64,000 nucleotides of DNA, taken from positions 7,185 to 71,184 of the forward strand of contig DATJFD010000076.1 of the NCBI GenBank assembly GCA_035495855.1, in the 5' to 3' direction. A program made the position numbers and the translations under genes. Numbering within the stretch: position 1 is the first letter of the stretch; every line of letters starts with the position of its first letter. Of the stretch, positions 941 to 61,568 are shown piece by piece. The DNA comes from Candidatus Binatia bacterium (GTDB lineage: Bacteria > Patescibacteriota > Patescibacteriia > SG8-24). Under the pieces are notes generated by a model. That model had not been told where the DNA came from, ran no database searches, and worked only from the letters and a program-made list of their open reading frames with translations.

Positions 941-1010
941 AAGCTTCAAGCGCCGAGTTCCGAGGGGCTGAAAAGCAGCTCGAAGCTCTCAGCTCGAAGC
1001 TCGAAGCTCG
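941..1010. repeat. heptamer-periodic imperfect inverted repeat (AGCTCGA/AGCTTCG word family)
   Basis: Between the lemA stop and the htpX ATG. Right arm is CAGCTCGA AGCTCTC AGCTCGA AGCTCGA AGCTCG (7-nt units). Left arm AAGCTTCAAGCGCCGAGTTCCGAGG is partly complementary. Confidence 0.55.
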
Positions 1011-1910
1011 ATGACGACATACGACTTCATCGCCGCCAACAAGAGGAAGACCGTGATCCTCATCGCGGTCTTTTCCGCGCTCGTGCTCGCCATCGGCTGG
1101 ACCATCGACCAGTACTACGGCGGAGGAGGGTTCTTCGTCGGCGTCGCCGCCATCTACTCGACCATCTCGGCGCTGGTGAGCTACTACGCCGGCGACAAGG
1201 TCGCGCTGGCCGTCTCCGGCGCGCGCCCGGTGACCGGCGCGGAATCGCCCTACGTCGTGCGCATGGTCGAGAACCTAGCCATCTCGCAGGGCATGCCGAC
1301 GCCGAAGGTCTATCTGATCGAGGACGAGGCCATCAACGCCTTCGCCACCGGCCGCGACCCGAAGCACGCGTCCATCGCGGTGACGACCGGCGCGGTACGG
1401 AAGCTGGCGAACGAGGAGCTCGAGGGCGTGCTCGCGCACGAGATGTCGCACGTGAAGAACTACGACATCCGGGTGATGACCATCGTGATCGTGCTCGTCG
1501 GCATCATCTCGGTGCTCGCCAACATGATGTTCCGGGCGACCTTCTACGGCGGCCGCCGGCGCGACAACCGCAACAGCGCCAGCGGGGTGTTCCTCCTGAT
1601 CGGCCTGGTACTGATGATCTTCGCCCCTTTCATCGCCCAGCTCATCAAGCTGGCCGTATCGCGAAGGCGGGAATACCTCGCCGACGCGTCCGGCGCGCTG
1701 ATGACGAGATTCCCCGAAGGCCTGGCGCGGGCGCTCAGGAAGATACAGCAGGAATCGATGCCCATGGCCCACGCTTCCGCCGCCACCGCGCACCTGTTCA
1801 TCGCCAACCCTTTCACCGGAAAAACGCTCGAAGGCCTCTTCTCCACGCACCCGCCGATCGAAATGCGCATCGCGGCGCTCGAGAAGATGGCCAGCGTGCC
1901 CGGCACTTAA
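1011..1910 (+). CDS. htpX: zinc metalloprotease HtpX (peptidase M48)
   Basis: 299 aa with multiple TM segments, the HEMSHVKNYD (HExxH) motif, and EY.AD ... THPP...R at the C-terminus. Confidence 0.9.
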   Translation: MTTYDFIAANKRKTVILIAVFSALVLAIGWTIDQYYGGGGFFVGVAAIYSTISALVSYYAGDKVALAVSGARPVTGAESPYVVRMVENLAISQGMPTPKVYLIEDEAINAFATGRDPKHASIAVTTGAVRKLANEELEGVLAHEMSHVKNYDIRVMTIVIVLVGIISVLANMMFRATFYGGRRRDNRNSASGVFLLIGLVLMIFAPFIAQLIKLAVSRRREYLADASGALMTRFPEGLARALRKIQQESMPMAHASAATAHLFIANPFTGKTLEGLFSTHPPIEMRIAALEKMASVPGT

Positions 1911-2018
1911 GTCGAAAGTGGAGAGTCGAAAGTCGAAAGCCCGCCGGGCTCCGCCACTCTCGTCTCTCCGCTTCCCACATCAATCTTTCCACTCTCGACT
2001 TTCCACTTTCTACTCTCG
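1911..2018. repeat. heptamer-periodic inverted repeat (GTCGAAA/GTGGAGA word family)
   Basis: Left arm is GTCGAAA GTGGAGA GTCGAAA GTCGAAA G (1911-1939). Right arm CTTTCCACTCTCGACTTTCCACTTTCTACTCTCG (1985-2018) is built from the complementary words. It fills the htpX-clpC gap. Confidence 0.6.
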
Positions 2019-2019
2019 T

Positions 2020-4579
<2,560 letters not shown>

Positions 4580-4587
<8 letters not shown>

Positions 4588-8337: not shown

Positions 8338-8445
8338 ACCCTCCGCAGCACCTCATATCCGCGTCGCAGTAAAGCCGGAGAGGTGCTATTATTTATGGGT
8401 CGGAAGCCCAAACCTTTGGACCGCCCTGAACACCCCGATCGGCTT

Positions 8446-9585: not shown

Positions 9586-9586
9586 T

Positions 9587-15523: not shown

Positions 15524-15560
15524 AGACCGGCCGAGAAGCATCTCGGCCGGTTTCGTTTTT
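15524..15560. terminator. bidirectional rho-independent terminator
   Basis: AAAGACCGGCCGAGA agca TCTCGGCCGGTTTCGTTTTT, between convergent radA (+) and the 15578..15994 gene (-). Confidence 0.7.
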
Positions 15561-15994: not shown

Positions 15995-16130
15995 GCGTTG
16001 GCTCCTGTATCGGTGGTCGAAGGGACGGATCCCGGATATTCGGCCGAAGTTGGCCCTTTTCCGGCTTGTGCGACTGCACAAGGCCGCACCTTATCACGGG
16101 CGCGGTTCCGGGTCAACGGGACGTTTTTTG

Positions 16131-16203
16131 CGTTTTCCGTTTTCCGTTTACCGTTTTCAGCGCGGTCCGAAAACCAAAAACGGTAAACGGAAAACGGAAA
16201 ACC
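16131..16203. repeat. heptamer-periodic inverted repeat (CGTTTTC word family), near-perfect hairpin
   Basis: Left arm CGTTTTC CGTTTTC CGTTTAC CGTTTTC (16131-16158). Right arm AAAAACG GTAAACG GAAAACG GAAAACC (to 16203) is complementary at about 26 of 28 positions. It abuts the recG stop (TAG, 16203-16205). Confidence 0.8.
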
Positions 16204-18297: not shown

Positions 18298-18368
18298 AAA
18301 AAAGTGGAAAAGCGGGAAAGCGCGAGAGCGGGTGGCCGCTCTACCGCTCTTCCACTTTTCCACTTTGT
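18298..18368. repeat. 8-nt-periodic inverted repeat (AAAGTGG/AAAGCGG word family)
   Basis: Left arm AAAAGTGG AAAAGCGG GAAAGCGC GAGAGCGG. Right arm CCGCTCTACCGCTCTTCCACTTTTCCACTTT. Lies between the tRNA-Arg 3' end and the recG start. Confidence 0.65.
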
Positions 18369-20699: not shown

Positions 20700-20788
20700 G
20701 GAGGGTTGCGCCGAATGGTAAGGCAGCAGTTTGCTAAACTGCGACCTCGAAAGGGGTCTTGTGGGTTCGATCCCCACACCCTCCGCCA
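20700..20788 (+). tRNA. tRNA-Ser (anticodon GCU)
   Basis: GGAGGGTTGCGCCGAATGGTAAGGCAGCAGTTTGCTAAACTGCGACCTCGAAAGGGGTCTTGTGGGTTCGATCCCCACACCCTCCGCCA. Has a long variable arm, anticodon loop UU-GCU-AA, and acceptor GGAGGGT/ACCCTCC with an encoded CCA. Confidence 0.9.
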
Positions 20789-20790
20789 TA

Positions 20791-20830
20791 GCAAATCGGA
20801 CATGGCCCTGTGCCATGTCCGATTTGCTTT
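20791..20830 (+). terminator. long perfect hairpin after tRNA-Ser(GCU), terminator-like
   Basis: GCAAATCGGACATGGC cctgt GCCATGTCCGATTTGC followed by TTT. Confidence 0.45.
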
Positions 20831-20838
20831 GATGCCGA

Positions 20839-20995
20839 GGAGGGTGTGGGGATCGAACGGGTCGGGGCTGACCCGGGGGTCGCGTCCACCTGACGCGACA
20901 CAGCGAACGGGCGCAAGGAAACGGATATATCCGCCCGTTCCACGCAAACCCCGCCGCGTTCGGCGGCGGGTACGGAATCCCCACACCCTCCGCCA
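20839..20995 (+). other. 157-nt MITE-like or structured element bounded by inverted copies of the tRNA-Ser(GCU) 3' end
   Basis: 5' end GGAGGGTGTGGGGATCGAAC is the reverse complement of the tRNA 3' part GTTCGATCCCCACACCCTCC. 3' end ATCCCCACACCCTCCGCCA is a direct copy. The termini form a 15-bp perfect stem enclosing 3-4 strong internal hairpins: GGGTC/GACCC, GTCGCGTC/GACGCGAC, GAACGGGCG/CGCCCGTTC and CCCGCCGC/GCGGCGGG. Confidence 0.5.
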
Positions 20996-21029: not shown

Positions 21030-21117
21030 GGAGAGGTGGCCGAGCGGTTTAAGGCAGCGGTCTTGAAAACCGCCGTGCTGAAAGGCACCGTGAGTTCGAA
21101 TCTCACCCTCTCCGCCA
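21030..21117 (+). tRNA. tRNA-Ser (anticodon UGA)
   Basis: GGAGAGGTGGCCGAGCGGTTTAAGGCAGCGGTCTTGAAAACCGCCGTGCTGAAAGGCACCGTGAGTTCGAATCTCACCCTCTCCGCCA. Has a long variable arm, anticodon loop CU-UGA-AA and an encoded CCA. Confidence 0.9.
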
Positions 21118-24432: not shown

Positions 24433-25137
24433 TCAAACGGTGGTGATCTCTTCCTGCACGCGCAGCTTCGCCGAATCCTGCATCTTCTGGCTGTCGTACA
24501 CCTCCGGGTTGTAGACGCGGTAGAACAGCTCGATGAGGCTCTGGGTGTCGAGCTGCACCGCCTTGAGGCCCATGCTGTTGAGGTTGCCGATGATGTGCTC
24601 GACGCGCACCTGGAGGTCGTTCTTGCGCTGCCGGAACCGCTCCTCGGCGAGCTTGACGAACAGGGCCGGCGTGAAGGCCTCCGACATCCGGGCCACGAAG
24701 CCCTTCTGCTTGTCCGACAGCGGGTTGTACGGGACGATCACGAAGAACGACTTCTGCATGATCTGCCCGAGGGTGACGAGCTCGGTCACGAAGTTCCTGT
24801 AGTCCGCGATCTGGATGCGGAGCAGCTCGTTGGTCTGGTTCTTCTCCGATTCCTTCAGGCGCTCGATGTAGTTGTCGATGTTGAGCTTGCGCGACTGGAT
24901 GACGACCTGCAGCGGGAACTCCAGCGCGTTGAGGAACTGCACGTACGCGGCGATGATGGCGTTCTGCTCGTCCTCCGACTTCAGCGCGAAGTTGATGCTC
25001 GCGACGATGAGCACGGCGCGCAGGGTGCCGTCCTTCATGATCACGACGTCCTCCTTGATCTCGTTGATGTCCAAATAGCGCTGGGTCGCGGGACCCGGCT
25101 TGCTGCCGGCGAGTTTCGGGGATTGCATTTCGGGCAT
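24433..25137 (-). CDS. virB4: VirB4 N-terminal domain protein (separate ORF, in frame with the ATPase ORF)
   Basis: 234 aa. YLDINEIKEDVVIMKDGTLRAVLIVASINFALKSEDEQNAIIAAYVQFLNALEFPLQVVIQSRKLNIDNYI matches the N-terminal pattern of Gram-positive-type VirB4 (PrgJ/TraE-like). The stop TGA (24433-24435) is in frame with the downstream ATG (24426), only 2 codons apart. Confidence 0.75.
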   Translation of the reverse strand: MPEMQSPKLAGSKPGPATQRYLDINEIKEDVVIMKDGTLRAVLIVASINFALKSEDEQNAIIAAYVQFLNALEFPLQVVIQSRKLNIDNYIERLKESEKNQTNELLRIQIADYRNFVTELVTLGQIMQKSFFVIVPYNPLSDKQKGFVARMSEAFTPALFVKLAEERFRQRKNDLQVRVEHIIGNLNSMGLKAVQLDTQSLIELFYRVYNPEVYDSQKMQDSAKLRVQEEITTV

Positions 25138-25206
25138 AGCTGCGAGCTTCGAGCTGCGAGCTTCGAGCTTGTGTCGTCACAAGCTCCAGGCTCACGGCTC
25201 GAGGCT
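25138..25206. repeat. heptamer-periodic inverted repeat (AGCTKCG word family)
   Basis: Left arm AGCTGCG AGCTTCG AGCTGCG AGCTTCG AGCTTGT G. Right arm CACAAGCTCCAGGCTCACGGCTCGAGGCT. It fills the gap between the prgI-like stop and the virB4-N start exactly. Confidence 0.65.
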
Positions 25207-25630: not shown

Positions 25631-25684
25631 GGGCGCATTATACCATAGAAGGAGCAGGATTGTCCCCAAGTGAGCCAAAAAACG

Positions 25685-37300: not shown

Positions 37301-40300
37301 TCGACGAAGACATCGGACGTGCCGACGGCCTCGAAGTTGAGCTTCACCGAGGTCTGGCCCCACGGGGTCTGGCCGGGCGTGGGATTGCAGGCCGCCCCGC
37401 CGCCGCACTCGAGGTTCGTGGCGCAGGCCCTGGTGGCGTCATTGCTGCACCGTCCGGATTCGATGATGACCGGACCGAGCGTGTACTGCTTCCATTCCGA
37501 CGAGAGGGTGATCTTCGGAGCGGTGGTGCGCGGCGGCACGGAAGCTTCGTCGTCGTCGGCGAAGTTCGAGCTTCGCGGCGGAGCGGACGTGGCGGTCGTG
37601 AACGAGCAGGTGCCGTCGGGGCAGTTCGAACCGGTCGTGCAGGCCAGGCCGTTGTTGGCGCCGCCCTTGCAGGTGCCCGGCGAGACGCCCGGCACGCCTG
37701 AGGCGGCCGAAATGGTGCAGGAGGTCGCGACGCCGTTGTTCGGGACCATGCAGGTCAGGCCGGTGCTCGTCGAGCAGGGGCAGCCTTCGGTCGAGGCCAC
37801 GGGGCAAGCCGTATCGATGTTGCAGGTGATCGTCGCGCCGCCGTCGCGGAAGCCGACGTTCAGCGAGCCGGTGCCGCGCGCCCAGAAGGTGAGGATATAG
37901 GCGCTTCTCGGCTGGACCAGGCCGCCGATCTCGCGGCGCGCCAGACGCGTGCCGCCCGTGCCGATCTTCATGGAATGCCCGCCGACGGTGACGGATTCGC
38001 CGGACTGGGTGAGGACCCCGAGGGTCACGTCGCCGCTGCCCTTCCAATTGCCCGGCCAATCCTCGAAATCGTCATGGAGCAGCGACTGGACGTTGGTGGA
38101 AGCGTTGCCTTTGTACGCGCGGCAGCCGTTCTGTTCCTTCGGGCATACGTTGCTCGCGCCGGCGTCGGCGAAGTAGACGCACTGACCCTTCGCGGAATCC
38201 CAGCGGCCGTTGGATTTCTCGCAGTCCGCCTGCGTCGAGGTGGTGATGCGGTACTGAACGCAGGACGAGGACGCGATGATGGTCTTCGACAGCTGGCGGT
38301 AATGGCGGTTGCCGAGCGCATCGTAGAACTCGCGGCAATCGAAGTCGCCTCCGTCGATGGCCGAGCGGTTGCAGTAGCCCGCCGTATCGGAAGAGCCGTT
38401 GCCGATGGCCTGGCTCGCGCAGGCGGTCGCCTGGGCGTTCAGCCTGGTGCACGGCGCGGGACCCGCGTTCGCGCAGCCGGCATCCGCGCAGATGTCGTTC
38501 GCAAGGCCGGCGGTGATGTCGGCGGGCGAGCCGTTCACGACCGGAGCGGCCGTCGTGTTGGTGGTGTCGGTGGTGTTCTTGAGGTTCCAGACGAGCAGCT
38601 GGTAGCCGGTCGTGTCGGAGCCCTCCCAGCTATAGTAGACGCCCTTGGTCGCGTCATCAGGCTTGATGCAAAGACGGAGATGCGAGTAATACTCGACCTT
38701 CTCGGTCTCGAGGTTGGTGAACTCCGAGCATCCGACCTCGTTCTCCGTGCAGGAGGTCGCGGTCGTCGGGATGAAATAGACCGGGAACTTCACGGTGTCG
38801 AAGTCGGACTCTTCCTGTTTGAAGACGTCATACCCGGCGCATTCCTGCGGGCAGCGGTCCTGCGGGCCGGCGATGCCGGGAACCGTGGCGTCGCCGTTCG
38901 TGGGCGTGTAGGCGTCGCAGCCGACCTCGTTCTCGCGGCACACGCCGGCGAACGCGTTGCATTCCGGCCGGTCGCCCTCATCGCCGGTGCAGCCCAGGAA
39001 ATCCGGCGGGACCTTGATGGACGCGGTTTCGCTCGTGTTCGCGCCTCCGTAGGCGGAATGGTAGGAGGATCCGCCGCCTTCCTCGAACTGGACCGCGTCG
39101 GCGTAGACGGTGCCGCTCGTGGTGTAGAGCCAGAGGGTCGCGTGCGAAACGTCCTTGTTGTCGATGACGAACGTGCAGGAAGCGCGCAGGCCCTTCTCGG
39201 TCGCGGCCTTGGTGCCGGACGCGCGCATGTTGATCTCGCCGGAGGCCGCGCCGCCGGAAGTGCCGTCGACGGTGGCGGCGCAGTTCACCGTGGGCGTGGT
39301 CCCTTCCGCCTCGCCCGAGTAGCCGGTCGTGGTGACGACGTCGTCCTGCGCGAGCGTGACGGTCGCGCCGTTCGCGTCCCGGAAGGTCAGGCCGATGCCG
39401 CCGCTGACGTCGTTGCCCGAGTCAGGGATGAAGGTGGCGGAAACGGTGTAGGTGGTCTTCCTTCTCACGGGCAGGCCCTGCTGCGCCACGTTCTCCGTGA
39501 CCGAGCACTTCTGCTGTCCCTTGATGACCTTGCAGGTGTCGTTCAGGACGTTGCCGGCCGTGCCGTACGTGCAGGGGCAGCCGAGATCGGCGATGCAGGT
39601 GCCGGCATTGATGGTGGCGTTCGTGACGAGCGGCAGCGTGCAGGCCGCGACGGTGCCCAGCGTGCCCGGCGGATTGAAACCCGTCGCCAGGACCGGAAGG
39701 CGCATGGCGTTCGCGCCATCCACGGCCTTGCTCCCGTCCTTGCTCAGGAAACCCTTGTTGGCGGACGGAACCTCGCCGAACGGGGTCCAGCTGGTCGCGT
39801 GATCGGGCGTGCCGTCGTTGTCCCCGTCCTCGACGTCCTCGAAGCTCGGGTTGCGGACGAGGTTGAGGGCGTCGCCCGCGTCCAGCCGCACGAGCGAGGA
39901 ACAGCCGTTGCTCGTGGCGCTGCAGGTCTGGGCGTTCTTGTTGAAGAATCGCGACGGGTCGATCTGCCAGTCATCGCCCTCGGCCTTGGCGCCGGTGAGC
40001 GACGAGCAGGAGCGCTGGCCCTTCTCGACCTCGCAGGTCAGGCCGGCGGTGCAGGAGCAGGAAGCGGTGTTGCACGGGTAGGGCTGGCGGCAGACGGCGC
40101 CGTTGGGCGCGGTGCACGACGTGTTGTTCTTCGTGATGGTGCAGGATCCCGTGTTGAACGCCGTGCCCGAGTTCGGCGGGACCGTGCAGGTGCAGGACTT
40201 GATCGGGTCCGAAGCGTCGACGGGATGCGTACAGACCGACGAAAGACTGCAGGTCACGGTGCTCAAATTGAGCGCGTACTGGCGGCAGCCGGCGTTGTCG

Positions 40301-42090
40301 GCGTTGCAGACGCCGTGGTCGATGGTGTTGAGGACGTAGTTCTTGATCTCGCCGGTGCGGGCCTTGAGCGTGCGGCACGTGTTGTAGGCAGCAGGGCAGG
40401 AATCGCCGTTGAAGCGCCAGACGTTCCGCTCGCGCGCGCAGTAGCCCCAGCCGCCGGTGCAGTTGCCGTTGTCGTCCTGCTTGAGGCAGGTCTGCGGATC
40501 CACGCACTGCTCGGCGCGGCTCGCGATCTCGCTCGACAGCGGGACGGGACCGAAGGCCATCGCGCGGCATTGCGTCGGCGGGATCTTCAGCACCCAGTCG
40601 GGGTCGATGAGATGGCACCACGGGTGGGCGGCGTCGATGGTCCCCTGGTCGTTGCAGTTATTGAAGCCGGCCATCACCTCGCGGAGCTTGGTGTTGGGAC
40701 CGGCCTTGCGCGCGGCGATCTCCCAGCCGATCGGCAGGATGCGGGCCGCGCGGAGCTTCTTGATGTTGCTCTCGCAGTACGCGTAGGTATAGCAGAAAGG
40801 ATCCTGGTCCTTGACCGGATCGGAGGACGCCACGAACGGCCAGTCGCCGTGGAGCATGTTCTTGTCGACGGCCTCCCTGACGGTCACCGGCGTGACGTCG
40901 GCCACGCGGACGGCGTTCGCGAACTGCTGATCGATGACGCAATTGTTCGGGCCGCGCTCCGCGCCGGGACAGACGCTGAACTCGAGCAGGGGGTCGATGA
41001 TGCCGGTATCCTTCGGCTGCGCGGCGGTGAACCGCGGCGCCAAGGCTTCGGTCGCGCCGGTGGTCCCCGGCGGCTGCAGCAGGCCTTCGGGGTTCAGGAT
41101 GAGGTCCGGCTGGAGGGCGATGAGCTCCTCCGTCGACATGAGGCCGTTGATGAGCTTGTTGAGCAGGCGCGAAATGAGGGTCATCGCGAACGTCTGCACG
41201 GCGTTCACGACGATGGAGATGACCGCCTTGGAGGCGATCTGGCCGGCGGCGTAGGAAGCCGAATACTGCTGCGGGTTGTCCTGCTGCATCTTCTTCATGC
41301 GCTGGAACTCGTCGTGCGTCACCGACGACGGCGCCTTGGCGCGGCCCGAAACGGGATCACGGACGTCGGAGAACCCGCCGCCCGCGGAAGCGTCCATGAT
41401 GCGTTTCATGACGTCGGCCCTCTTGGCCTCTTCCTTCACTTCATAGAGGCCGCTCTGCGCGCCGAGCGCGACCGACAGCGGGGCTTGTCCCCTCTCGAAG
41501 GTCGGCTTGAGGCCCTTGAGCACCTCGCCGCTCGTGACCGAATCCTTGAAGTTCGACCAGTTGCTCGCGACCGCGTTGAAGTCGCACTTCGGCGGCGGCG
41601 GCTTGATCTCGTCGAGGGCGCCCAGCTGGATCTTGAGGGAGAACTTGATGCCCGGGTTGCAAAGGTCGAAACCGAGCTTGGTGAAACCGCCTTGCGTGGA
41701 AAGGGTGCCGATGGCCTCGCCGATGGCGCCCTGCCATGCCTGCTTGAAGCCGTCTTCGAACGCCTTGCTGTTCCAGCAGACGACCTGGCCGGGGCAGTCG
41801 GACGTGAGGGCGACGGCCGCGGTGTAGGCGAGCTGCGAGGTGAAATAGTTGACGCCGTTGACGACGGCGGTGACGGCCGCCTCGACGAACGCGTCCTTGA
41901 TGGTGGTCCAGACGTTGGTGGTCGTGGTCTGGACGCTGGTGATGGGGTCGGTGTATTGCGCGTTGGCCTGGCGGGGCGACCCGAAGAGGAGGGTCGACGA
42001 GGCCAGGAAGAAGCCGAACAGGAAAAGCAGGAACGTCGCCATCGCCTTCCTCCCCGAGCGTCCGGGGTCCTTGCTGTAGAAAATCCCCAT
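31303..42090 (-). CDS. giant (3595 aa) secreted or surface Cys-rich protein with CBM-like and PKD-like domains
   Basis: Single uninterrupted ORF. Signal or anchor segment MATFLLFLFGFFLASSTLLFGSPRQANA. Very high Cys content with recurring Cys motifs. Two NPSFED/DDFEDW-type jelly-roll (CBM4/9-like) regions (nt about 39079-39861 and 37276-38082). A DFGDGT PKD-like box near the C-terminus (nt about 31711-31983). Confidence 0.85.
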   Translation of the reverse strand: MGIFYSKDPGRSGRKAMATFLLFLFGFFLASSTLLFGSPRQANAQYTDPITSVQTTTTNVWTTIKDAFVEAAVTAVVNGVNYFTSQLAYTAAVALTSDCPGQVVCWNSKAFEDGFKQAWQGAIGEAIGTLSTQGGFTKLGFDLCNPGIKFSLKIQLGALDEIKPPPPKCDFNAVASNWSNFKDSVTSGEVLKGLKPTFERGQAPLSVALGAQSGLYEVKEEAKRADVMKRIMDASAGGGFSDVRDPVSGRAKAPSSVTHDEFQRMKKMQQDNPQQYSASYAAGQIASKAVISIVVNAVQTFAMTLISRLLNKLINGLMSTEELIALQPDLILNPEGLLQPPGTTGATEALAPRFTAAQPKDTGIIDPLLEFSVCPGAERGPNNCVIDQQFANAVRVADVTPVTVREAVDKNMLHGDWPFVASSDPVKDQDPFCYTYAYCESNIKKLRAARILPIGWEIAARKAGPNTKLREVMAGFNNCNDQGTIDAAHPWCHLIDPDWVLKIPPTQCRAMAFGPVPLSSEIASRAEQCVDPQTCLKQDDNGNCTGGWGYCARERNVWRFNGDSCPAAYNTCRTLKARTGEIKNYVLNTIDHGVCNADNAGCRQYALNLSTVTCSLSSVCTHPVDASDPIKSCTCTVPPNSGTAFNTGSCTITKNNTSCTAPNGAVCRQPYPCNTASCSCTAGLTCEVEKGQRSCSSLTGAKAEGDDWQIDPSRFFNKNAQTCSATSNGCSSLVRLDAGDALNLVRNPSFEDVEDGDNDGTPDHATSWTPFGEVPSANKGFLSKDGSKAVDGANAMRLPVLATGFNPPGTLGTVAACTLPLVTNATINAGTCIADLGCPCTYGTAGNVLNDTCKVIKGQQKCSVTENVAQQGLPVRRKTTYTVSATFIPDSGNDVSGGIGLTFRDANGATVTLAQDDVVTTTGYSGEAEGTTPTVNCAATVDGTSGGAASGEINMRASGTKAATEKGLRASCTFVIDNKDVSHATLWLYTTSGTVYADAVQFEEGGGSSYHSAYGGANTSETASIKVPPDFLGCTGDEGDRPECNAFAGVCRENEVGCDAYTPTNGDATVPGIAGPQDRCPQECAGYDVFKQEESDFDTVKFPVYFIPTTATSCTENEVGCSEFTNLETEKVEYYSHLRLCIKPDDATKGVYYSWEGSDTTGYQLLVWNLKNTTDTTNTTAAPVVNGSPADITAGLANDICADAGCANAGPAPCTRLNAQATACASQAIGNGSSDTAGYCNRSAIDGGDFDCREFYDALGNRHYRQLSKTIIASSSCVQYRITTSTQADCEKSNGRWDSAKGQCVYFADAGASNVCPKEQNGCRAYKGNASTNVQSLLHDDFEDWPGNWKGSGDVTLGVLTQSGESVTVGGHSMKIGTGGTRLARREIGGLVQPRSAYILTFWARGTGSLNVGFRDGGATITCNIDTACPVASTEGCPCSTSTGLTCMVPNNGVATSCTISAASGVPGVSPGTCKGGANNGLACTTGSNCPDGTCSFTTATSAPPRSSNFADDDEASVPPRTTAPKITLSSEWKQYTLGPVIIESGRCSNDATRACATNLECGGGAACNPTPGQTPWGQTSVKLNFEAVGTSDVFVDNVDLKAVQDSVYVVRDSWTTPASCDQTADGIASPQEMLGCREYTTSKNEKAYLRSFTNLCRDKAVGCRAFSAQQNTPQNPFEESFNAVCRLYETDGVTPRKCGSVACNYTGPGDHCTVGGGCSCTKPEGSCLIPNNGTTCDIPVAADAGTACVCNYDVRHPAAMSTAPQMLADVCRVAVGETDCRFKYDAWDDSTRPDENPDRANIEADRRVYLVDNSAGQCTADQVGCRAMGLPHYGFEGQCDLGPGFTVSGTVVNGVCNSATGCVCGPVNGGTCPVANGEKGCKVSFELGVIDKWNAIAIKDDPSKYEQTLCTSKTLNCEEYTASDGTYYFRDPVDKVCEYKDNAIVNGQTVSGFFRRSSTGALFPCYPELLQSGDYYALYKNADRVCTLPNITTTCSGSFCSNPAGCGCTSNGSTCVIPNGSSSCKIIDAGRCKADGCQCFVAPDPVPACKVYKDNTTCGYQGWVGVCEAKYDRCEEFVDPVSTSNAHPAGEPYYYIVNTKLDLKTCSGKASLKQGCVLFKQTSKTQNLYSAASSYLRSVTEASSGFVPPVNCDSDPRSPYCEQRCFSIPEGVCSATPEKFCKQDTEDPELGCPGATNYCTGRKRYGNGCSTSDTANPNKDCNKAIGEQCAGVSHCSITTSKFCDVNGDCPGGETCTPNPATQNIHILKSEAGITKNDANVIIKVRPDRECAQWYTCTSYDTVYDEQQNKIKPVCSAFSLCDEIRGQTASAFECAHTFDPPKTVLTDRDYTARDVTFSGLEYSGYSIPGRYPAQYLSPFSIVKGRCVNTGGTATARGECVDSLKCTTGGGAPTDYCKMYTGVCLGDRLGTSCDANSDCGVGYCAKSFFATTRYAILLDPGYVCKDDTDCTGDESPSTPPGGGGTCTVGNDDNCRTATNRIAKCIATNQCSKTGQAANGTCLEHKCFYPYGGGILNPADAINQAQCRAYPEEDSPYAESVLERTGNCRGFDCTNGQALNKKAQFSGSNVCSLNNDCECNYQRYDYGKTGVSHFYGLESGQMIKPWTTNTDIDPNVGVCQGGSLDGKPCRAIGHPENKPNKDCTNPDDATDAGTCQKLTKLTHVNGWSGFCMDPDKSILVNGRPDQFNCNVWLPVDQLAGSPDNFNQFVEAGFTTDQQSLLYCAAAEGAKHSGTYEFPLHLESGGKSQPYSICVTDNQCAGRSLATCTGLKNNSSAGFSDMSTSNTDACAVVGGKCVDKVATDDGVAFTNADNPPAQPNATMTGDGSWNTDFNNKTQVPANYGACDRAAFKAADDNCTAAIILGGIFGGFAGAAAGAGLCYSGIAGWCDGLATCHSRALPGGNDCTLAGSYFDTSWQDATVMEDCTMRGQGIKENDLVAVRIQFPDESNGGVNGRLYLYPGHWKSTFEFDDNSSLGTAAGPGRNQRVGDMAIGDYGDSTSPCAHILSGGVDNEDECESIEDRGGDDGMHNCIGVEAVFDSNHNLDKIRTVLCHNESTFSHHISASSYAMLREACTDVVQTHNASNPVQNIAWTDRLWKAQNGNAGAVGLPAAFEYNHHTTRPNANPADLKPFGPVTPSLGAVNYNGQTTLDVRWPLPVFKSEGGSPFTVLRREGLQLWTFCGYPTATGVNSPYDPPMGEGSDCWSHVAADPHLPDVAHPQDPDSGTYNANAQRTAAGYPYACLGQCDMAGMSGKTRDDGYTLLSRMFVKSFVHFNYDPTSPTGLSLTAPVYHLDGAGYDKRLLYMNVGNAPKILTVATGNCSQAADGLCQEGAEGITVDLPNCGGCTDYQGRVTASIKYYAFADREHMPIRRRIVDFGDGTSILETPGFYKNHRGCPATGTDNAPAGCGPEDQQCNTIPGGETAVPFGLTPQSCESRYFSDRHTYTCNPQKLATLPACTDPGHPYPCRDGDDCVFKPRVQVLDNWGMCNGSCPGGASGESGDFCFNSLGITSASDPINLTPAASTPSLTCAGSTCTVNGFTGNRNECWNLKDTHYDIRQGPSKLQPWTEGAAVKVRS

Positions 42091-42947: not shown

Positions 42948-43811
42948 CTAACCGGTAAGCGCAAGCACGAGGCGGCGCCAGTCCTCTACGGAGAGCGTTT
43001 CGGGGCGGGCCTCCGGCCGGATGCCGGCCGCCGAAAAGGCCTTAAATAGGCCCGTTTCGTCGATACCGATGCCCTGGAGCGAGTTCTTGAGCTGTTTCCG
43101 CTTGCCGGCGAAGGCCGCCCGCACGATGGCGAAGAAGCGGTCCTGCCCGAAGCCGGTGAAGAACGCTTCGAGGATGACGGGGTCTTTGCGCGCAATGTGG
43201 ATAACCGACGAATCGACGCGCGGCGGAGGGTAGAACGACCTGGCCGGCACCTTCACCACGCTGCTCGCCTCCCCGATCGAACGGACGAGCACGGCCATGC
43301 CGCTCATGTCGCCCGTCTTGGCGAGCAGGCGGTCGGCCACTTCCCGCTGGATCATCACGGTGACCGATATCGGGTACGGCGGTTCGAGCAGGAATTTCCT
43401 GATGGCGTTCGAAGTGATGGCGTACGGGAGGTTCGCGACCACCTTATAACTAGGAGCTCGGAGCTCGGAGCTCGGAGCTCCGAACGCCGAGACGATCTCG
43501 GCGTTCGAGAAGTTCAGGGCATCGCCTTCAAGGAGATGGAAGCGCGGGTTCGCGCCGAAGCGGTCACGGAGCAGCGCCGCGAGCTTGCGGTCGAGCTCGA
43601 TGGCCGTGACCTCGGCGCCGCGGCCGAGCAGTTCTTCGGTGAGGATGCCGGGGCCGGGGCCGATCTCGACCACGCGTGAGCCGGGACCGACGCCTGCGGC
43701 GTCGACCATGGCCTTCACGACGCGGCCGTCGAGCAGGAAATGCTGGCCGCGGTCGCGGATGGGGCGGATGCCGTAGGGTTCGAGCAGGGCGCGAAGCTCG
43801 TCGGCGGTCAT
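42948..43811 (-). CDS. rsmA: 16S rRNA (adenine1518/1519-N6)-dimethyltransferase RsmA/KsgA
   Basis: Start re-picked at MTADELRALLEPYGIRPIRDRGQHFL (ATG 43811, in an ATGA overlap with the upstream stop). SAM motif VVEIGPGPGILT and the NLPY motif (VVANLPYAITS). Confidence 0.85.
   Translation of the reverse strand: MTADELRALLEPYGIRPIRDRGQHFLLDGRVVKAMVDAAGVGPGSRVVEIGPGPGILTEELLGRGAEVTAIELDRKLAALLRDRFGANPRFHLLEGDALNFSNAEIVSAFGAPSSELRAPSYKVVANLPYAITSNAIRKFLLEPPYPISVTVMIQREVADRLLAKTGDMSGMAVLVRSIGEASSVVKVPARSFYPPPRVDSSVIHIARKDPVILEAFFTGFGQDRFFAIVRAAFAGKRKQLKNSLQGIGIDETGLFKAFSAAGIRPEARPETLSVEDWRRLVLALTG
43453..43480. repeat. (GGAGCTC)x4 tandem heptamer inside the rsmA coding sequence
   Basis: GGAGCTC GGAGCTC GGAGCTC GGAGCTC on the + strand. 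It encodes ...GAPSSELRAPSY... on the - strand, just before the NLPY motif. Confidence 0.8.
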
Positions 43812-45007: not shown

Positions 45008-45086
45008 GAGTCGAAAGTCCAAAGTCCAAAGTCGAAAGTTCCGCACGCTTGCGCTCTCGACTTTCGACTATCGACTCTCGACTTTC
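45008..45086. repeat. heptamer-periodic inverted repeat (AGTCGAA/AGTCCAA word family)
   Basis: Left arm GAGTCGAA AGTCCAA AGTCCAA AGTCGAA AGT. Right arm CTCTCGACTTTCGACTATCGACTCTCGACTTTC. The right arm overlaps the last codons and stop of tsaC (45068). Confidence 0.7.
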
Positions 45087-45690: not shown

Positions 45691-45762
45691 TCGAGTCGAA
45701 AGTCCAGAGTCGAGAGCGCACAGATCCACCCTCTCGACTTTCAACTCTCGACTCTCGACTTC
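45691..45762. repeat. heptamer-periodic inverted repeat (AGTCGAA/AGTCGAG word family)
   Basis: Left arm TCGAGTCGAAAGTCCAGAGTCGAGAG. Right arm CTCTCGACTTTCAACTCTCGACTCTCGACTTC. Lies between the epimerase stop and the tsaC start. Confidence 0.7.
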
Positions 45763-47820: not shown

Positions 47821-47845
47821 ATGCGTCGAGCTTCGAGCTCCGAGG

Positions 47846-48163: not shown

Positions 48164-48269
48164 AGTGACGTCATTGTAGCGCTTCTTTCGCTGAGTTTCA
48201 AGGAAAAAATATGAGTCCTTATGAGCCGGCCGGCGGGAGACGGCTTGCGGCGGCTTTCATGTATGTACC

Positions 48270-48453
48270 CCGCGGGTCCTGTCACGGTCCACCCCCAATG
48301 GGTGCTCGGGACTCGGCCCTGCGCGCCCATTGGGGGACCCCCGGACCGTGCCACCCGCGGTCCTTGGACCGGCGCTCTCAGGAAATGGGGGCGGAAAGGA
48401 AATCCGGCCTGCGTGTCGCGGACGATCGCCTATGCACGGAAGGGCCGGATTTC
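48270..48453. other. two long imperfect hairpins in a 360-nt non-coding gap (candidate ncRNA, strand unknown)
   Basis: Hairpin A (48270-48360) stacks three helices: CCGCGGGT/ACCCGCGG, ACGGTCC/GGACCGT and CCCCCAATGGG/CCCATTGGGGG. Hairpin B (48399-48453) has an 11-bp stem GAAATCCGGCC/GGCCGGATTTC. Confidence 0.25.
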
Positions 48454-48498
48454 TCGCAGGATCTCAAAACTCAGCTTCGATGGTGCGGCTTTATTGTA

Positions 48499-48524
48499 TG
48501 AAAAAACCCGCGGTGTAGGCGGGT
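48499..48524 (-). terminator. rho-independent terminator (minus strand)
   Basis: On the - strand: ACCCGC ctacacc GCGGGT TTTTTCAT, directly after the stop at 48524-48526. Confidence 0.5.
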
Positions 48525-49198: not shown

Positions 49199-50921
<1,723 letters not shown>

Positions 50922-52683: not shown

Positions 52684-52687
52684 GGGT

Positions 52688-53695
52688 TCAAGCTTCGAGT
52701 GCCGAGCTTCGAGCTTCAAGCTTCGAGCTTCGAGCTTCGAGCTTGGAGCTTGGAGCTTGGAGCTTTTCCACCGTCGGCGCGTCCAAACCCAGTTCGCGCA
52801 ATTTCGCTTCGAAGAGCGCCTGGTATTCGGCCCGGCGGTCGTTGACGTGGAACTTGAGCACGCCGTCCGTCACGACGACGCGGCTGTCCTTGTTGGCCAT
52901 GGCCGCGATGTCGGGCGGGAACATGCGCGTCTGCAGGCGACGGAGCGGCGCTTCGGCCAGACGCAGGAGCGGGAGGAGGGGCGAGGTCCAGCGCGGCGCG
53001 CCGGCGCGCAGCTTGCGGGCGGAAGGCGCCGAGGCTCCGGGGAGCCGCTCGCGCACCCAGGCGTTGGCCGCCGAGAACCGCGCGAAGGCGCCTCCCGCGT
53101 CGTAGAGCGGCACGAGCGTCGCCGTCCAGTAGCGGAGGTAGGTGTCATCGGGAGCGAGCGCGAAGCGGGAAAGGTCCTGTTCGGGCTCGGCCACGTAGAA
53201 GCTCATGCAGACCTTGTCGGCGTGCGTATGCTCGTCCGGCCGCAGCCCCAGCGCGGCGAGCGCGCTCGCGACCACGAACCGCGTGGCCCAGACGGTGCCG
53301 GGCCGCGCCACGACGAACATGTCGATGTCGCTCTCCTCGTCCGCGCCGGAGATCGCCAGGCTGTTGCAGACGGCCGCGAGCCGCACGGACGGCAGCAGGC
53401 GCAGGAACCGCGCGACGCGGCGGGCGCGGGCGAACTTCTTCTCCGACAGGCGGTGCCGGCGCTCGCGTTCGGCGACGAGTTCGTCGCGGCCGGCGAGATG
53501 CCAGAACCCGTCGCGGCCGCCGAACGCGGGATCGTCGAGCGCGTCGAGCGCGTCCGCGGCCGTCGGCGCCTCACCCGTCTCGCCCGGGAAACGGTAACGA
53601 TGCCGCAGGAGCTCGGCGAGCGTCAGCGGATGGTCGAAGAGGTCGAAATAGGCGAGGGTCGCGGCGAGCGAGCGGCGGAGGGCCGGCGTCTCCAT
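52688..53695 (-). CDS. putative nucleotidyltransferase-fold protein
   Basis: Start at METPALRRSL (ATG 53695); a GTG at 53734 is also open. GADEESDIDMFVV resembles the G[SA]x9-12DxD nucleotidyltransferase motif. The C-terminal 20 aa derive from the heptamer array. Confidence 0.5.
   Translation of the reverse strand: METPALRRSLAATLAYFDLFDHPLTLAELLRHRYRFPGETGEAPTAADALDALDDPAFGGRDGFWHLAGRDELVAERERRHRLSEKKFARARRVARFLRLLPSVRLAAVCNSLAISGADEESDIDMFVVARPGTVWATRFVVASALAALGLRPDEHTHADKVCMSFYVAEPEQDLSRFALAPDDTYLRYWTATLVPLYDAGGAFARFSAANAWVRERLPGASAPSARKLRAGAPRWTSPLLPLLRLAEAPLRRLQTRMFPPDIAAMANKDSRVVVTDGVLKFHVNDRRAEYQALFEAKLRELGLDAPTVEKLQAPSSKLEARSSKLEARSSALEA
52691..52767. repeat. eleven tandem heptamers (AGCTTCG/AGCTTGG), direct array
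   Basis: AGCTTCG AGTGCCG AGCTTCG AGCTTCA AGCTTCG AGCTTCG AGCTTCG AGCTTGG AGCTTGG AGCTTGG AGCTTTT. On the - strand it encodes the C-terminal ...KLQAPSSKLEARSSKLEARSSALEA of the 52688.. gene. Confidence 0.85.
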
Positions 53696-53742: not shown

Positions 53743-53807
53743 GAGAATTGAGAGTTGAGAGTTCAGGAATGAGAGCCTCTCGATTCTCAATTCTAAACTC
53801 TCATTTC
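53743..53807. repeat. heptamer-periodic inverted repeat (GAGAATT/GAGAGTT word family)
   Basis: Left arm GAGAATT GAGAGTT GAGAGTT CAGGAAT GAGAG. Right arm CTCTCGATTCTCAATTCTAAACTCTCATTTC. The right arm overlaps the stop of the PRC-barrel gene (53801). Confidence 0.7.
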
Positions 53808-54118
53808 TTCAAAGCCATGGTGCTCGTGCCGCCCGCGGCCGGCTCGGCCGCCCGCTTGGCCAGCTGCCGCGCCTCGGCGCGCTCCGTCACCGCCGCGTCC
53901 TCGACCACCATCATCTCCCCGTCGAGCGAGACCACCTGGCCCGGATGGACCAGCAGCTCGTCCGGCATGATGGACGACAGCAGGCTGGCCCGCGCCACGA
54001 CGTACTGCGCGACCTCGTGATGCTCGGCGTCGATGACGAAGGCGGCGAGCTTGCCCACCTTGTCCCCGCTCTTGGTGATGACCGGGATGCCCCGGAGGTC
54101 GGCGTCGCGATAGCGCAT
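53801..54118 (-). CDS. PRC-barrel domain protein
   Basis: 105 aa. LRGIPVITKSGDKVGKLAAFVIDAEHHEVAQYVV matches the PRC-barrel pattern (G..V....G..lG.v.d..id...g.v..l.v). Confidence 0.6.
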   Translation of the reverse strand: MRYRDADLRGIPVITKSGDKVGKLAAFVIDAEHHEVAQYVVARASLLSSIMPDELLVHPGQVVSLDGEMMVVEDAAVTERAEARQLAKRAAEPAAGGTSTMALKK

Positions 54119-57626: not shown

Positions 57627-57700
57627 GGGTCGCCTCCTTTCGGGACGTGAAAGTACGTCACTTGCGTCGTAGCACCAACGGGCCGCACGGTCAATGCTAA

Positions 57701-57768
57701 GAGTTGAGAATTGAGAGTTTAGAATTGAGGGACGTCTCTAAATTCTCAATTCTCATTTCTCAATTCTC
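57701..57768. repeat. heptamer-periodic inverted repeat (GAGAATT/GAGAGTT word family)
   Basis: Left arm GAGTT GAGAATT GAGAGTT TAGAATT GAGGGA. Right arm TCTCTAAATTCTCAATTCTCATTTCTCAATTCTC. Same word family as 53743-53807. Confidence 0.75.
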
Positions 57769-57779
57769 CGCATGCGCGG

Positions 57780-58576: not shown

Positions 58577-58718
58577 AGGCGCTCAAAAAAAATCATTGCC
58601 CTGAGGCACGAGTGGGCATTGTAGAGGAAGGCCGCGCGAACTTGCAAGCGGCGCGAAAAAAAAGACGAGGGCCGGACCCGGCCCCCGTCTCTCAATGCTC
58701 ATTTCTCATCGCTTCCGG

Positions 58719-59273: not shown

Positions 59274-59283
59274 AGGTCTGTCG

Positions 59284-59553: not shown

Positions 59554-59590
59554 AGTGACGGGTATGCCGCGGTGCGGCGGAAGGCGTTGG

Positions 59591-59667: not shown

Positions 59668-59732
59668 GTAGGGTCTCCTTGTCCGTCTGTAAGTATAGCG
59701 GAGAAAGCGGTTGCGGGCAATTTCGAGCCTGA

Positions 59733-59759
59733 ACGAAAAAGACCCGGCCTTGCCGGGTC
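59733..59759 (-). terminator. rho-independent terminator after tRNA-Leu (minus strand)
   Basis: On the - strand: GACCCGGC aagg CCGGGTC TTTTTCGTT. Confidence 0.6.
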
Positions 59760-59767
59760 GCTTTCGT

Positions 59768-59854
59768 TGGTGCGGTCGGAGAGATTTGAACTCTCACGAG
59801 GTTGCCCCCGCCAGCCCCTCAAGCTGGTGCGTCTGCCAGTTTCGCCACGACCGC
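59768..59854 (-). tRNA. tRNA-Leu (anticodon GAG)
   Basis: Reverse complement is GCGGTCGTGGCGAAACTGGCAGACGCACCAGCTTGAGGGGCTGGCGGGGGCAACCTCGTGAGAGTTCAAATCTCTCCGACCGCACCA. Has a long variable arm and anticodon loop UU-GAG-GG. Confidence 0.9.
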
Positions 59855-59921
59855 ACGTGATTTCGTTGCCGCCCCAGCGTAACCGAAGATTTCCGGCTTG
59901 GCAAGGCCCCGCGGGCAGAGC

Positions 59922-60007
59922 GCGAAAGGGGTAAAGGAGTAAAGGGTGAAAGCGGGCTTGAACACGCCTTTCGCACTTTCGTCCTCTTCCCCTTTTCCCC
60001 TTTTTTT
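59922..60007. repeat. 8-nt-periodic inverted repeat (GTAAAGG word family)
   Basis: Left arm GCGAAAGG GGTAAAGG AGTAAAGG GTGAAAGC GGG. Right arm GCCTTTCG CACTTTCG TCCTCTTC CCCTTTTC CCC followed by T7. It abuts the stop of the lipid-kinase gene (60006). Confidence 0.7.
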
Positions 60008-60794: not shown

Positions 60795-60800
60795 GAACGT

Positions 60801-60872
60801 CAGCTGTTAGCTGTCGGCTGAGAAAAGCCGTCGGCGGCGCCTCTGAAAGCTGAGGGCTGAAAGCTAAAAGCT
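60801..60872. repeat. heptamer-periodic imperfect inverted repeat (AGCTGT / CTGAAAG words)
   Basis: Left arm CAGCTGT TAGCTGT CGGCTGA G.... Right arm CTGAAAG CTGAGGG CTGAAAG CTAAAAG CT. Lies between the bactofilin stop and the lipid-kinase start. Confidence 0.6.
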
Positions 60873-61349
60873 CTATCGCGTGATGAACGGCGCCATGATC
60901 TTCTCGACGGCGTCCTCCGTCTTCTTCTCCGCGACCGGCTGCTGCTCGGTCTTCGGACGCGGCTTGCGCTGCTCCTCGGCAGCGGCCTCGGCGCCCATGC
61001 TGATCTTGCCGTTGATGGTCGCGCCGCTCGCGACGACGAGGACCTTCGTGCGCACGTCGCCCTGGACGCGGGCAGTGGGCTCGAGCTCGAGGCGTTCGGC
61101 GACGACGAGGTTGCCGCGCACTTCGCCGGCCACCGTGGCGTTGGCCGCGTGGACGTCGGCCGCGATGCGCGCGCGTTCGCCGACGCGCAGGTCGCGCTCG
61201 GTCTTGAGGCTGCCTTCGACGACGCCCTCGATGAGGACGTTGCCCTGGCTCTGGAAGTCGCCTTCCAGTTTCACCGACGCGGCGATGACGGTCTCGGGTT
61301 CGTGAGCTGCTCCGGGTTCGCGGTTCGGCATAGCGTTCTTCTGAAACAT
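60873..61349 (-). CDS. bactofilin family cytoskeletal protein
   Basis: Start at MFQKNAMPNREPG; a later ATG at 61331 is possible. Beta-helix repeats of the form G.v.G.l.....l.v...a.v.g.v.a..v.v.G.v.G.v. Confidence 0.8.
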   Translation of the reverse strand: MFQKNAMPNREPGAAHEPETVIAASVKLEGDFQSQGNVLIEGVVEGSLKTERDLRVGERARIAADVHAANATVAGEVRGNLVVAERLELEPTARVQGDVRTKVLVVASGATINGKISMGAEAAAEEQRKPRPKTEQQPVAEKKTEDAVEKIMAPFITR

Positions 61350-61484
61350 ATGATTCAGGGCCGCGCGGCCGCGCGGCAGTGTGCGCAAAAATGAATACGC
61401 CTGCAGTATAACAACGAGAAAAGGGCTGTCAAAACGAAAAAAACGGGCTTCCATGTGGATGACGTTCGGGGAACGACTTCCTTA

Positions 61485-61568
61485 CGTTCTCCGTTTTCCG
61501 TTCACCGTTCACCGTTTTCGGTGGACCCGCCCTGAAAACCGGGAACGGCGAACGGAAAACGAAAAACC
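61485..61568. repeat. heptamer-periodic inverted repeat (CGTTTTC word family)
   Basis: Left arm CGTTCTC CGTTTTC CGTTCAC CGTTCAC CGTTTTC. Right arm GAAAACC GGGAACG GCGAACG GAAAACG AAAAACC. Same word family as 16131-16203. It abuts the histidine-kinase stop. Confidence 0.8.

Follow-up and report, generated by a model that had tools for sequence, protein, structure and literature searches.

Gene junctions in a 64-kb stretch of DNA from a small, uncultured bacterium of the Patescibacteria (candidate phyla radiation, CPR) carry a family of hairpins whose arms are built of tandem 7-nt units. The stretch comprises 64,000 nt of contig DATJFD010000076.1 (GenBank assembly GCA_035495855.1) and is referred to here as the window. 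We find that the heptamer-hairpin feature is real and non-random, and that the elements are arrays of heptanucleotide simple-sequence repeats (SSRs), mostly arranged as inverted pairs. Their units were gained by replication slippage, and arms were copied between junctions within the genome. For their function we infer, with evenly divided confidence, that they are slippage-born, self-copying spacers shaped by translational constraints at junctions where ribosomes re-initiate.

To define the elements, we called tandem arrays with Tandem Repeats Finder, determined arm pairing from an inverted-repeat scan, and read directly all 15 loci listed in a preliminary description of the window. This approach yielded 21 period-7 arrays (at 977, 1909, 1985, 16126, 16169, 25138, 43453, 45009, 45057, 45693, 45731, 47826, 50842, 50891, 52687, 53743, 53778, 57700, 57737, 60799 and 61485), with 2.7-11.3 copies per array and 75-100% matches, and four AT-richer period-8 arrays (18301, 18350, 59925 and 59983). 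In a gene map curated with the GC1>GC2 rule and Pfam, the intergenic share of the window is only ~4.3 kb (6.7%), yet 19 of the 21 period-7 arrays are intergenic. Because so many arrays fall in so small a share of the sequence, their placement is non-random (binomial P far below 1e-10, also when pairs are counted once). The preliminary description had proposed a family at gene boundaries that uses different words at different loci, and these calls bear it out. The words in use include AGTCGAA, AGCTTCG, GAGAATT, CGTTTTC and GTAGGTT, with GGGG runs confined to the 8-mer at 59925; they belong to a few word families, each recurring within the one genome.

The inverted-repeat scan matched arrays of the window into 12 inverted pairs. 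Their arms measure 24-34 nt, show 78-100% complementarity and are uniform in length (4-5 units). When folded, these pairs form imperfect stem-loops with stems of 25-36 bp. We compared the RNA folding of 14 elements with 200 dinucleotide-preserving shuffles each. Ten of these elements are far more stable than their shuffles (z from -3.9 to -8.0, with 0-1 shuffles equally stable), and four are weak (z about -1.7 to -2.4: 941, the 52683 array, 53735 and 60795). The preliminary description had suggested that periodic arms allow alternative pairings in 7-nt steps, and a register scan agreed: pairings moved by +/-7 nt, or by +/-8 nt at both octamer loci, nearly match the best register. At the gathering threshold, Rfam returned no family for the elements, and its sole matches in the window are five tRNA genes.

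Not all loci conform to a single design. At least 15 loci had been reported to share one architecture. Most of them are hairpins filling a gap, the exceptions being the array at 43453, which lies inside ksgA, and that at 52691, which is the translated tail of an open reading frame (ORF) termed orfM. Similarly, the reported placement exactly between a stop codon and the next start holds at most junctions and fails at others. Besides the two coding arrays, the arrays at 45057 and 53778 begin with units that still overlap the end of the ORF upstream, the hairpins at 16126, 57700 and 61485 precede promoter-like sites and no start codon, and the elements at 18301 and 59925 adjoin tRNA genes. Coordinates, words and flanking features are collected in Table 1.

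Table 1. Heptamer and octamer elements of the window, with strand, repeat words, flanking features and folding z-score against dinucleotide-preserving shuffles
Coordinates (strand)	Feature	Words or units	Placement and flanks	z
941..1010 (+)	lemA/htpX junction hairpin	AGCTTCR / AGCTCGA	fills stop (936) to ATG (1011)	-2.0 (weak)
1911..2014 (+)	htpX/clpB junction hairpin	5′ arm 1911-1939, AGTCGAA/AGTGGAG; 3′ arm 1985-2014, CTTTCCA/CTCTCGA	ATG 2020; loop contains decayed units of the 3′ arm	-5.2
16126..16202 (-)	hairpin directly 3′ of recG stop (16203)	GTTTTCC / GGAAAAC; 26 nt at 100% complementarity	followed by TTGACC promoter-like site, no start codon	-6.7
18301..18366 (-)	8-nt-unit hairpin		between tRNA-Arg and recG ATG (18296); sole element with U-run	-8.0
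25138..25206 (-)	prgI/virB4-like junction hairpin	AGCTTCG/AGCTGCG	stop 25205 to ATG 25137	-5.6
43453..43480 (-)	array within ksgA, no gap hairpin	GGAGCTC x4	translated APSSELRAPS	
45009..45086 (-)	sua5/mfs junction hairpin	AGTCGAR / CTTTSGA	5′ arm overlaps final sua5 codons; ATG 44995	-4.9
45693..45761 (-)	epimerase/sua5 junction hairpin		shares 31-nt arm with 45054-45084	-5.2
47826..47844 (-)	short single array, no hairpin	TCGAGCT x2.7; word also in L098 ortholog	in 25-nt leader of release-factor gene	
50842..50920 (-)	groES/groEL junction hairpin	5′ arm AGGTTGT, 3′ arm CTACAAC (no G)	ends 4 nt 5′ of groEL ATG (50839)	-7.7
52687..52765 (-)	11-copy array, partly self-complementary	AGCTTCG	read as C-terminal ~31 amino acids of orfM	-1.7
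53743..53808 (-)	hairpin after PRC-barrel gene stop	GAGAATT / TCTCAAT	then conventional terminator-like stem (53724-53703), then ATG 53695	-2.4
57700..57768 (-)	hairpin after yraN-like gene	GAGAATT / TCTCAAT	then TTGACC-17-TACGAC promoter-like site and AAGGAGG Shine-Dalgarno of next gene	-6.0
58687..58711 (-)	putative remnant array, one arm only	GAGAAAT family	adjoins conventional terminator	
59925..60004 (-)	8-nt-unit hairpin	AAAGGGGA / CCCTTTAC	after dagK stop, upstream of tRNA-Leu	-3.9
60799..60870 (-)	weak hairpin	AGCTTTC / CAGCTNA	between bactofilin stop and dagK start	-2.0
61485..61567 (-)	hairpin after histidine-kinase stop	GTTTTCC / CGGWRAA	then promoter-like site TTGACA-16-TATACT (61432-61405)	-6.4

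Two further properties, both absent from the preliminary description, concern how the elements are oriented and which genes they precede: a fixed polarity relative to transcription, and a link to start codons that lack a Shine-Dalgarno (SD) sequence. In the window, 14 co-directional gaps contain arrays; none of the seven convergent or divergent gaps does. The co-directional junctions fall into two size classes, one of <=15 nt and one of about 65-150 nt, and in the longer class most contain a hairpin. Using 20 junction hairpins, nine from the window and 11 from relatives, we found that the stem starts a median of 2 nt after the upstream stop codon (d1) and ends a median of 7 nt before the next AUG (d2), with a median sum (d1+d2) of 10 unpaired nt between stop and start. 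The 5′ arms are purine-rich (237 G, 87 C), the 3′ arms are G-poor (83 G, 269 C), and potential start codons occur 24 times in the 5′ arms but five times in the 3′ arms. This polarity is fixed in about 18 of the 20 hairpins. The choice of start codons is backed by the conserved N-termini of HtpX, ClpB, GroEL, Sua5 and MFS.

SD-like 4-mers are found upstream of none of the eight hairpin-abutted genes, compared with 2 of 17 genes at tight junctions and 7 of 23 other genes. Similarly, groEL leaders in Patescibacteria loci contain no SD, whereas GGAG is present in controls from outside the CPR.

Other translation starts in the window have features of their own. TATAAT-like hexamers lie 6-9 nt 5′ of the ATG at prgI (tataatgcgccc-ATG, 25631-25650) and at orfK (tacaatgacgtcact-ATG, 48164-48185), and GGTGCTATTATTT-ATG is conserved before a pilin-like gene in three genomes (8380-8397 in the window; also L001 and L003). 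These sites suggest that some operon-first genes may be translated from leaderless mRNAs.

An exact-match look-up of the window's HtpX protein returned nothing, and relatives were reached by way of its homologs. We compared the lemA/htpX and htpX/clpB junctions across ten genomes with HtpX identities of 70-100%. Where hairpins are present at these junctions, they share a drifting word family (AGGTTRA/TYAACCT or GTGAGAR/CTYTCYCAC). At lemA/htpX, the orthologous gaps of five relatives contain a heptamer hairpin with another word, and at htpX/clpB relatives carry both arms or the 3′ arm alone. In the one-armed state, only the G-poor 3′ arm is found (L001, L087), and such leaders are completely unstructured, with a minimum free energy of 0 kcal/mol. 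In other genomes the genes are separated by 5-7 nt (L091, L092), by a terminator and promoter (L003) or by non-periodic sequence (L005). Over all orthologous junctions compared, three states are interchangeable: a hairpin, a lone 3′ arm, or 0-7 nt between the genes.

Presence and type of the element are conserved, with variable length and sequence, at lemA/htpX, htpX/clpB, groES/groEL and sua5/mfs. Hairpins are kept at groES/groEL and lemA/htpX across relatives with 73-89% protein identity. The groES/groEL gap is 87 nt in the window (AGGTTGT/CTACAAC) and 88 nt in L098 (AGGTTAG/CTCTAAC); as the words differ in both arms, both arms have changed together. In a consensus fold of lemA/htpX, 10 of 26 pairs show two-sided changes, and many pairs are also broken. 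In two relatives the genes at epimerase/sua5 touch or overlap (0 or -4 nt), and the window has a clean 83-nt insertion between conserved protein ends.

At the level of strains, the picture is static. Comparing gene coordinates, we found that a contig from a second sample that encodes an identical Sua5 has the same gap lengths as the window (87, 62, 83 and 72 nt). Because these lengths are identical, no unit-number variation is seen at strain level, and the expansion and contraction anticipated by the preliminary description did not appear there. A Sua5 search of metagenome contigs returned only relatives at 28-45% identity. We also considered whether the repeats could be assembly artefacts, a possibility raised earlier, and ruled this out: identical repeat-bearing gaps occur in the independent assemblies L001/L002, L003/L004 and L088/L089.

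We next asked how widely such arrays are distributed, using as controls CPR and non-CPR loci retrieved by a GroEL search of genome contigs (relatives at <=72% identity). These gave 38 other Patescibacteria-like loci (33-59% G+C) and 42 non-CPR loci. The density of period-7 arrays falls from 18.3 per 100 kb in the window and its close relatives to 8.0 in the other Patescibacteria-like loci and 0.9 in the non-CPR loci, whereas periods 6 and 9 are alike across these sets. Within the window and close relatives, periods 6, 8 and 9 reach only 5.7-6.3 per 100 kb. Inverted pairing follows the same order, involving 16 of 32 arrays in the window and close relatives, 6 of 47 in other Patescibacteria-like loci and none of six in non-CPR loci. 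Furthermore, CPR loci totalling 762 kb hold 28 period-7 arrays that abut an ORF starting with ATG, of which two are spurious calls on inspection, compared with one in 652 kb of non-CPR DNA. The 28 are G-poor, with C exceeding G in 20.

Two coding arrays show how units are gained. The array at 43453 lies in ksgA (RsmA, rRNA adenine dimethylase), an ORF whose residues 46-310 match Pfam RrnaAD in one stretch. The insert is in-frame, and the residues APSSELRAPS fall in a variable loop before the VVANLPY motif. The array is present in a 92%-identical ortholog (L098), and in a 69%-identical ortholog (L099) it is exactly 21 nt shorter (7 amino acids, 3 units). In orfM (ORF 52688-53695), the last ~31 codons consist of the 11-copy array, which has no separate right arm, and the L098 ortholog lacks these codons. 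The in-frame gain of three units in ksgA and the 11-copy extension of orfM are our grounds for slippage, which the preliminary description had offered as one possible origin. At the protein level, the ksgA array adds seven residues to a surface loop of an essential rRNA methyltransferase, a protein length change driven by an SSR.

Copying between junctions is evident from shared arms. The same 31-nt arm occurs at three window junctions with <=3 mismatches (about 90% identity), always in the sense orientation, where chance predicts 0 matches. In addition, a 14-mer with an odd unit, AGACCTAAAGGTTA, occurs only in three junction hairpins of the relative GCA_035494885.1. Both observations support the earlier suggestion of a dispersed family resembling repetitive extragenic palindromic (REP) elements. 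A dispersal test against REP elements and their hairpin-forming doublets (REPINs) showed arms of one family about 90% identical at the three junctions, with several word families coexisting. The loops are unrelated between copies that share arms. Variant units mirrored between the two arms, which would mark an exact inverted duplication, were sought as well, and the best register scored only marginally above those shifted by +/-7.

What, then, might these elements do? As stated above, we give evenly divided confidence to slippage-born, self-copying spacers held within translational constraints. Internal cistrons in this genome have no SD and normally start <=15 nt after the upstream stop, and therefore probably depend on termination-reinitiation. 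A spacer inserted at such a junction would be tolerated in only two forms. It may fold away, so that about 10 unpaired nt remain between stop and start, or it may consist of a single arm that provides a fully unstructured leader free of start codons. A secondary role in shielding the 3′ end of the upstream cistron is also possible. We favor translational constraints because of the polarity, the start-codon-poor arm next to the AUG, the stop-to-start fit and the SD-less context.

A stronger version would make the hairpins functional bridges for translation re-initiation, with the ribosome handed from the foot of the stem at the stop across to the AUG, as a bacterial analogue of ribosome shunting. 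This seems to us quite unlikely. Under such bridging, 7-nt units would let slippage tune stem length, and hence the strength of coupling. Cyanobacteria and Bacteroidetes are other lineages that use few SD sequences. By analogy, bridging could also explain the start-proximal heptamer repeats in those SD-poor lineages.

Several observations weigh against a translational role, and some bear on bridging in particular. The absence of arrays from the seven convergent or divergent gaps is not significant alone (p about 0.02 for 19 arrays, or about 0.1 for 11 elements). The polarity test contains only about 9-10 independent junctions (binomial p about 0.02-0.04), and in the window the direction of transcription cannot be separated from strand, nor possibly from the direction of replication. 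The elements at 16126, 57700, 59925 and 61485 precede a promoter-like site or a tRNA gene, so they cannot bridge a stop and a start, and two of these four have the opposite polarity. One-armed leaders of 36-43 nt in relatives indicate that bridging is not obligatory, and the non-periodic gaps of L005 and L087 show no significant structure. De novo 30S binding should also be hindered by a stable stem that ends 2-7 nt before an AUG. Finally, both tests for selection on RNA structure, namely a sense-strand G-U bias and the mirroring of units between arms, were negative: the G-U versus A-C asymmetry is unbiased (33 G-U in sense, 41 in antisense), and the antisense fold is the more stable one in 8 of 15 elements. 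Without a sense-strand G-U bias, DNA-level copying rather than selection on the mRNA may keep the arms complementary.

We consider a purely neutral account unlikely. Heptamer slippage and template-switch inverted duplication would simply be favored by mutation, with arrays piling up wherever they are not lethal and having no effect on RNA or translation. Arrays inside the ksgA coding loop and as a translated orfM tail are what such a process would leave, as are rapid gain and loss between relatives, junctions that work with gaps of 0-7 nt and the lack of G-U bias. In keeping with this, heptamer excess in many bacteria has been ascribed to polymerase slippage (PMC4692102, citing Mrazek 2007). 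Neutrality fits poorly with a polarity fixed in about 18 of 20 junction hairpins, few start codons in the AUG-proximal arm, a precise stop-to-start fit, uniform arms of 4-5 units, and the persistence of hairpins at groES/groEL and lemA/htpX among relatives with 73-89% protein identity. The hairpins might instead be dedicated RNA punctuation, that is, sites for RNase III or other processing, or barriers to 3′ exonucleases, which split polycistronic mRNA into units of differing stability as REP elements do in Escherichia coli. Intercistronic cleavage is known in the groESL mRNA of Agrobacterium, and one hairpin here lies within the groESL operon; furthermore, the 25-36-bp stems are very stable, and four hairpins end transcription units, before promoter-like sites or tRNA genes. 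This proposal nonetheless leaves the 7-nt periodicity and the one-armed states unexplained, and together with the dispensability of the hairpin at orthologous junctions and the lack of a sense-specific G-U pattern, this makes it distinctly doubtful.

Binding arrays read at about 7 nt per domain would account for a period that is strictly 7 and sometimes 8, and for limited word families that recur within the genome. The reader could be cold-shock proteins or S1 acting on the pyrimidine-rich arm in competition with the hairpin, or a DNA-binding protein. The 3′ arms GACTTTG and CTTTCCA resemble T/C-rich heptamers that are bound one per CspB monomer (PMC4679880). The many unrelated words, and their drift at an orthologous site, disfavor any sequence-specific reader; no candidate protein was identified and slippage explains the periodicity equally well, so we regard this account as very improbable. 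We give very little credence to transposase-mobilized elements, of REP/REPIN type or resembling MITEs (miniature transposable elements with inverted repeats), that target gene junctions. Such mobility would readily yield extragenic palindromes, near-identical arms at several junctions and the clean epimerase/sua5 insertion. Conserved loops are missing, however, and at orthologous sites the words have evolved in place. The 83-nt epimerase/sua5 insertion shows neither terminal inverted repeats nor a convincing target-site duplication, the defining features of a MITE, and no Y1_Tnp or insertion-sequence transposase domain was found among about 40 window ORFs scanned with Pfam. Finally, U-tract-less intrinsic terminators or attenuators could take the form of stable stems directly after stop codons; three hairpins precede promoter-like sites, and the element at 18301 has a U-run. 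This reading is extremely improbable given that 12 of 13 hairpins lack a U-tract, that canonical terminators with a GC stem and T-tract stand at operon ends, and that hairpins lie within conserved operons (groES-groEL, for example) and directly adjoin the following start codon. The preliminary description had likewise held that most elements lack a U-tract and are not the standard terminator of the organism. All but one indeed lack it and canonical terminators coexist with them; of those it had listed, the ones at 15524, 19889 (given there as 19892) and 63886 were recovered, and several further sites were found.

Several simpler identities were also examined. Canonical Rho-independent terminators were rejected, as only 18301 has a U-tract and a terminator scan selects other sites. 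RNA thermometers of the ROSE or fourU type do not fit: the AUG lies outside the stem, there is no SD, and the elements precede at least six non-heat-shock genes as well as htpX, clpB and groEL. A CRISPR-like array was rejected for want of spacers, and a G-quadruplex for want of G-tracts in the heptamer words.

Heptanucleotide repeats in bacteria have been known since about 1990. They are over-represented in many bacterial genomes, and their function is still unexplained (PMC4692102, PMC4679880). The preliminary description knew of no described class with this design, a view that does not stand: heptanucleotide tandem repeats have been described in cyanobacteria, as TAACTGA (PMC4679880) and as GGGAATC in Xanthomonas (PMC4692102). 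The nearest counterparts are the Xanthomonas pairs, the TAACTGA repeats and the cyanobacterial tandem heptamers. The Xanthomonas repeats (Rehm et al. 2015, PMC4692102) are also intergenic tandem 7-nt units in a ~65% G+C genome. There, most arrays belong to convergent inverted pairs (70-75 pairs per genome), two arrays that can form a stem-loop with typically about four units each; where an array lies and whether it is single or paired are conserved between species, and length and sequence vary. In contrast to the elements described here, which have many words without G-tracts, a strict stop-to-start fit and fixed polarity, the Xanthomonas repeats use one G-tract word with G-quadruplex potential and belong to another phylum.

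In Beggiatoaceae, cyanobacteria and Bacteroidetes, TAACTGA repeats (MacGregor 2015, PMC4679880) and, in Nostoc, start-proximal heptamers (bioRxiv 10.1101/2022.06.06.494920) are forward arrays that end one to a few nt before start codons (1 nt for TAACTGA). They are predicted to be unstructured and suspected of a role in translation, and the 3′ arms and one-armed leaders of the present elements behave alike. TAACTGA repeats differ in using a single word that carries stop codons, and in being nearly always direct, with one inverted case in 170 sets, whereas ours have many words and usually come with a complementary array upstream. The short tandemly repeated repetitive (STRR) heptanucleotides of the cyanobacteria Calothrix and Nostoc, as cited in PMC4692102, similarly comprise several heptamer words per genome, in tandem and mostly intergenic; they come from AT-rich genomes and are not known as stop-to-start hairpins. 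REP elements, their mosaic arrays (bacterial interspersed mosaic elements, BIMEs) and REPINs of Gammaproteobacteria (PMC3116915) are also dispersed extragenic imperfect palindromes, often between co-directional genes, for which protection of mRNA 3′ ends has been proposed. Unlike our elements, they have one conserved sequence without internal 7-nt periodicity and are linked to RAYT (REP-associated tyrosine transposase) genes; the elements here have unrelated loops and drifting words, with no transposase seen in the window ORFs scanned. Rho-independent terminators share the stable stem-loop downstream of a stop codon, in contrast to the long, AT-richer, periodic stems without U-tract that lie here inside operons and abut the next AUG. 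In the literature library searched, we found no report of heptamer repeats, or of SD use, in CPR/Patescibacteria. The elements are therefore of a known but functionally unexplained repeat kind and not categorically new; what appears to be new is the large number of word families, a hairpin fitted strictly between stop and start, the rule on polarity and the phylum.

The genomic setting agrees with the lineage given above. The G+C content of the window is 63-68%, and the organism is a member of the Patescibacteria with 65% G+C. Its genes are typical of this group and encode LemA, HtpX, ClpB, a DsbA-like protein, pilin-like proteins, RecG, VirB4/PrgI-like proteins, KsgA, Sua5, a release factor, GroES/GroEL, YidC, NusA and bactofilin, in addition to the five tRNAs. 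HtpX homologs carry the labels Parcubacteria, Uhrbacteria or Patescibacteria, and gene order is conserved with such genomes. The closest relative, GCA_035494885.1 (L001/L098), is labelled 'Candidatus Eisenbacteria bacterium' at NCBI, although its gene order and proteins match the window; that label probably reflects an error of binning or classification. On either side of a strand switch near 15.5 kb the sense strand is rich in C, with GC skew negative where genes lie on the + strand and positive where they lie on the - strand. This reverses the familiar pattern, in which the leading or sense strand is G-rich, and the skew therefore does not reveal the direction of replication.

Several other features of the window deserve mention. 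A VirB4/TraC-like ATPase is apparently split into ORFs 24433-25137 and 22528-24426, which are 6 nt apart, with a heptamer hairpin just upstream. Positions 31303-42090 hold a single ORF of 3,595 amino acids. Its L098 ortholog has 3,557 and no Pfam family on record. A very G+C-rich gap of 360 nt with long helices (48164-48523) separates two small ORFs, where the orthologous gap of L098 is 88 nt; it has no Rfam match even at E <= 1 and folds no better than shuffles (z = -1.1). The 3′ end of a tRNA-Ser gene (20700-20788), GTTCGATCCCCACACCCTCCGCCA, reappears downstream as an inverted copy (window 20765-20858) and then as a partial direct copy, CCCCACACCCTCCGCCA (about 20975-20995). The 241-nt gap between this gene and a second tRNA-Ser (21030-21117) folds with z = -9.9, and the repeat may be an att-like integration scar or a decayed tRNA gene.

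Together, these findings add a new and very large lineage, the Patescibacteria/CPR, to those in which heptamer repeats are common, as judged from 762 kb of sampled loci. Since gene callers extend ORFs into the arrays, the elements also matter for annotation. The polarity rule and the stop-to-start fit tie these repeats to translation rather than to transcription termination, and orthologous junctions, which hold a hairpin, one arm or no gap, form natural allelic series that make their function testable. If the hairpins do bridge stop and start, they would represent a new mode of translational coupling in organisms largely without SD sequences. If they do not, they would still be a good model for the way in which structured spacers arise by slippage and template switching in streamlined genomes.

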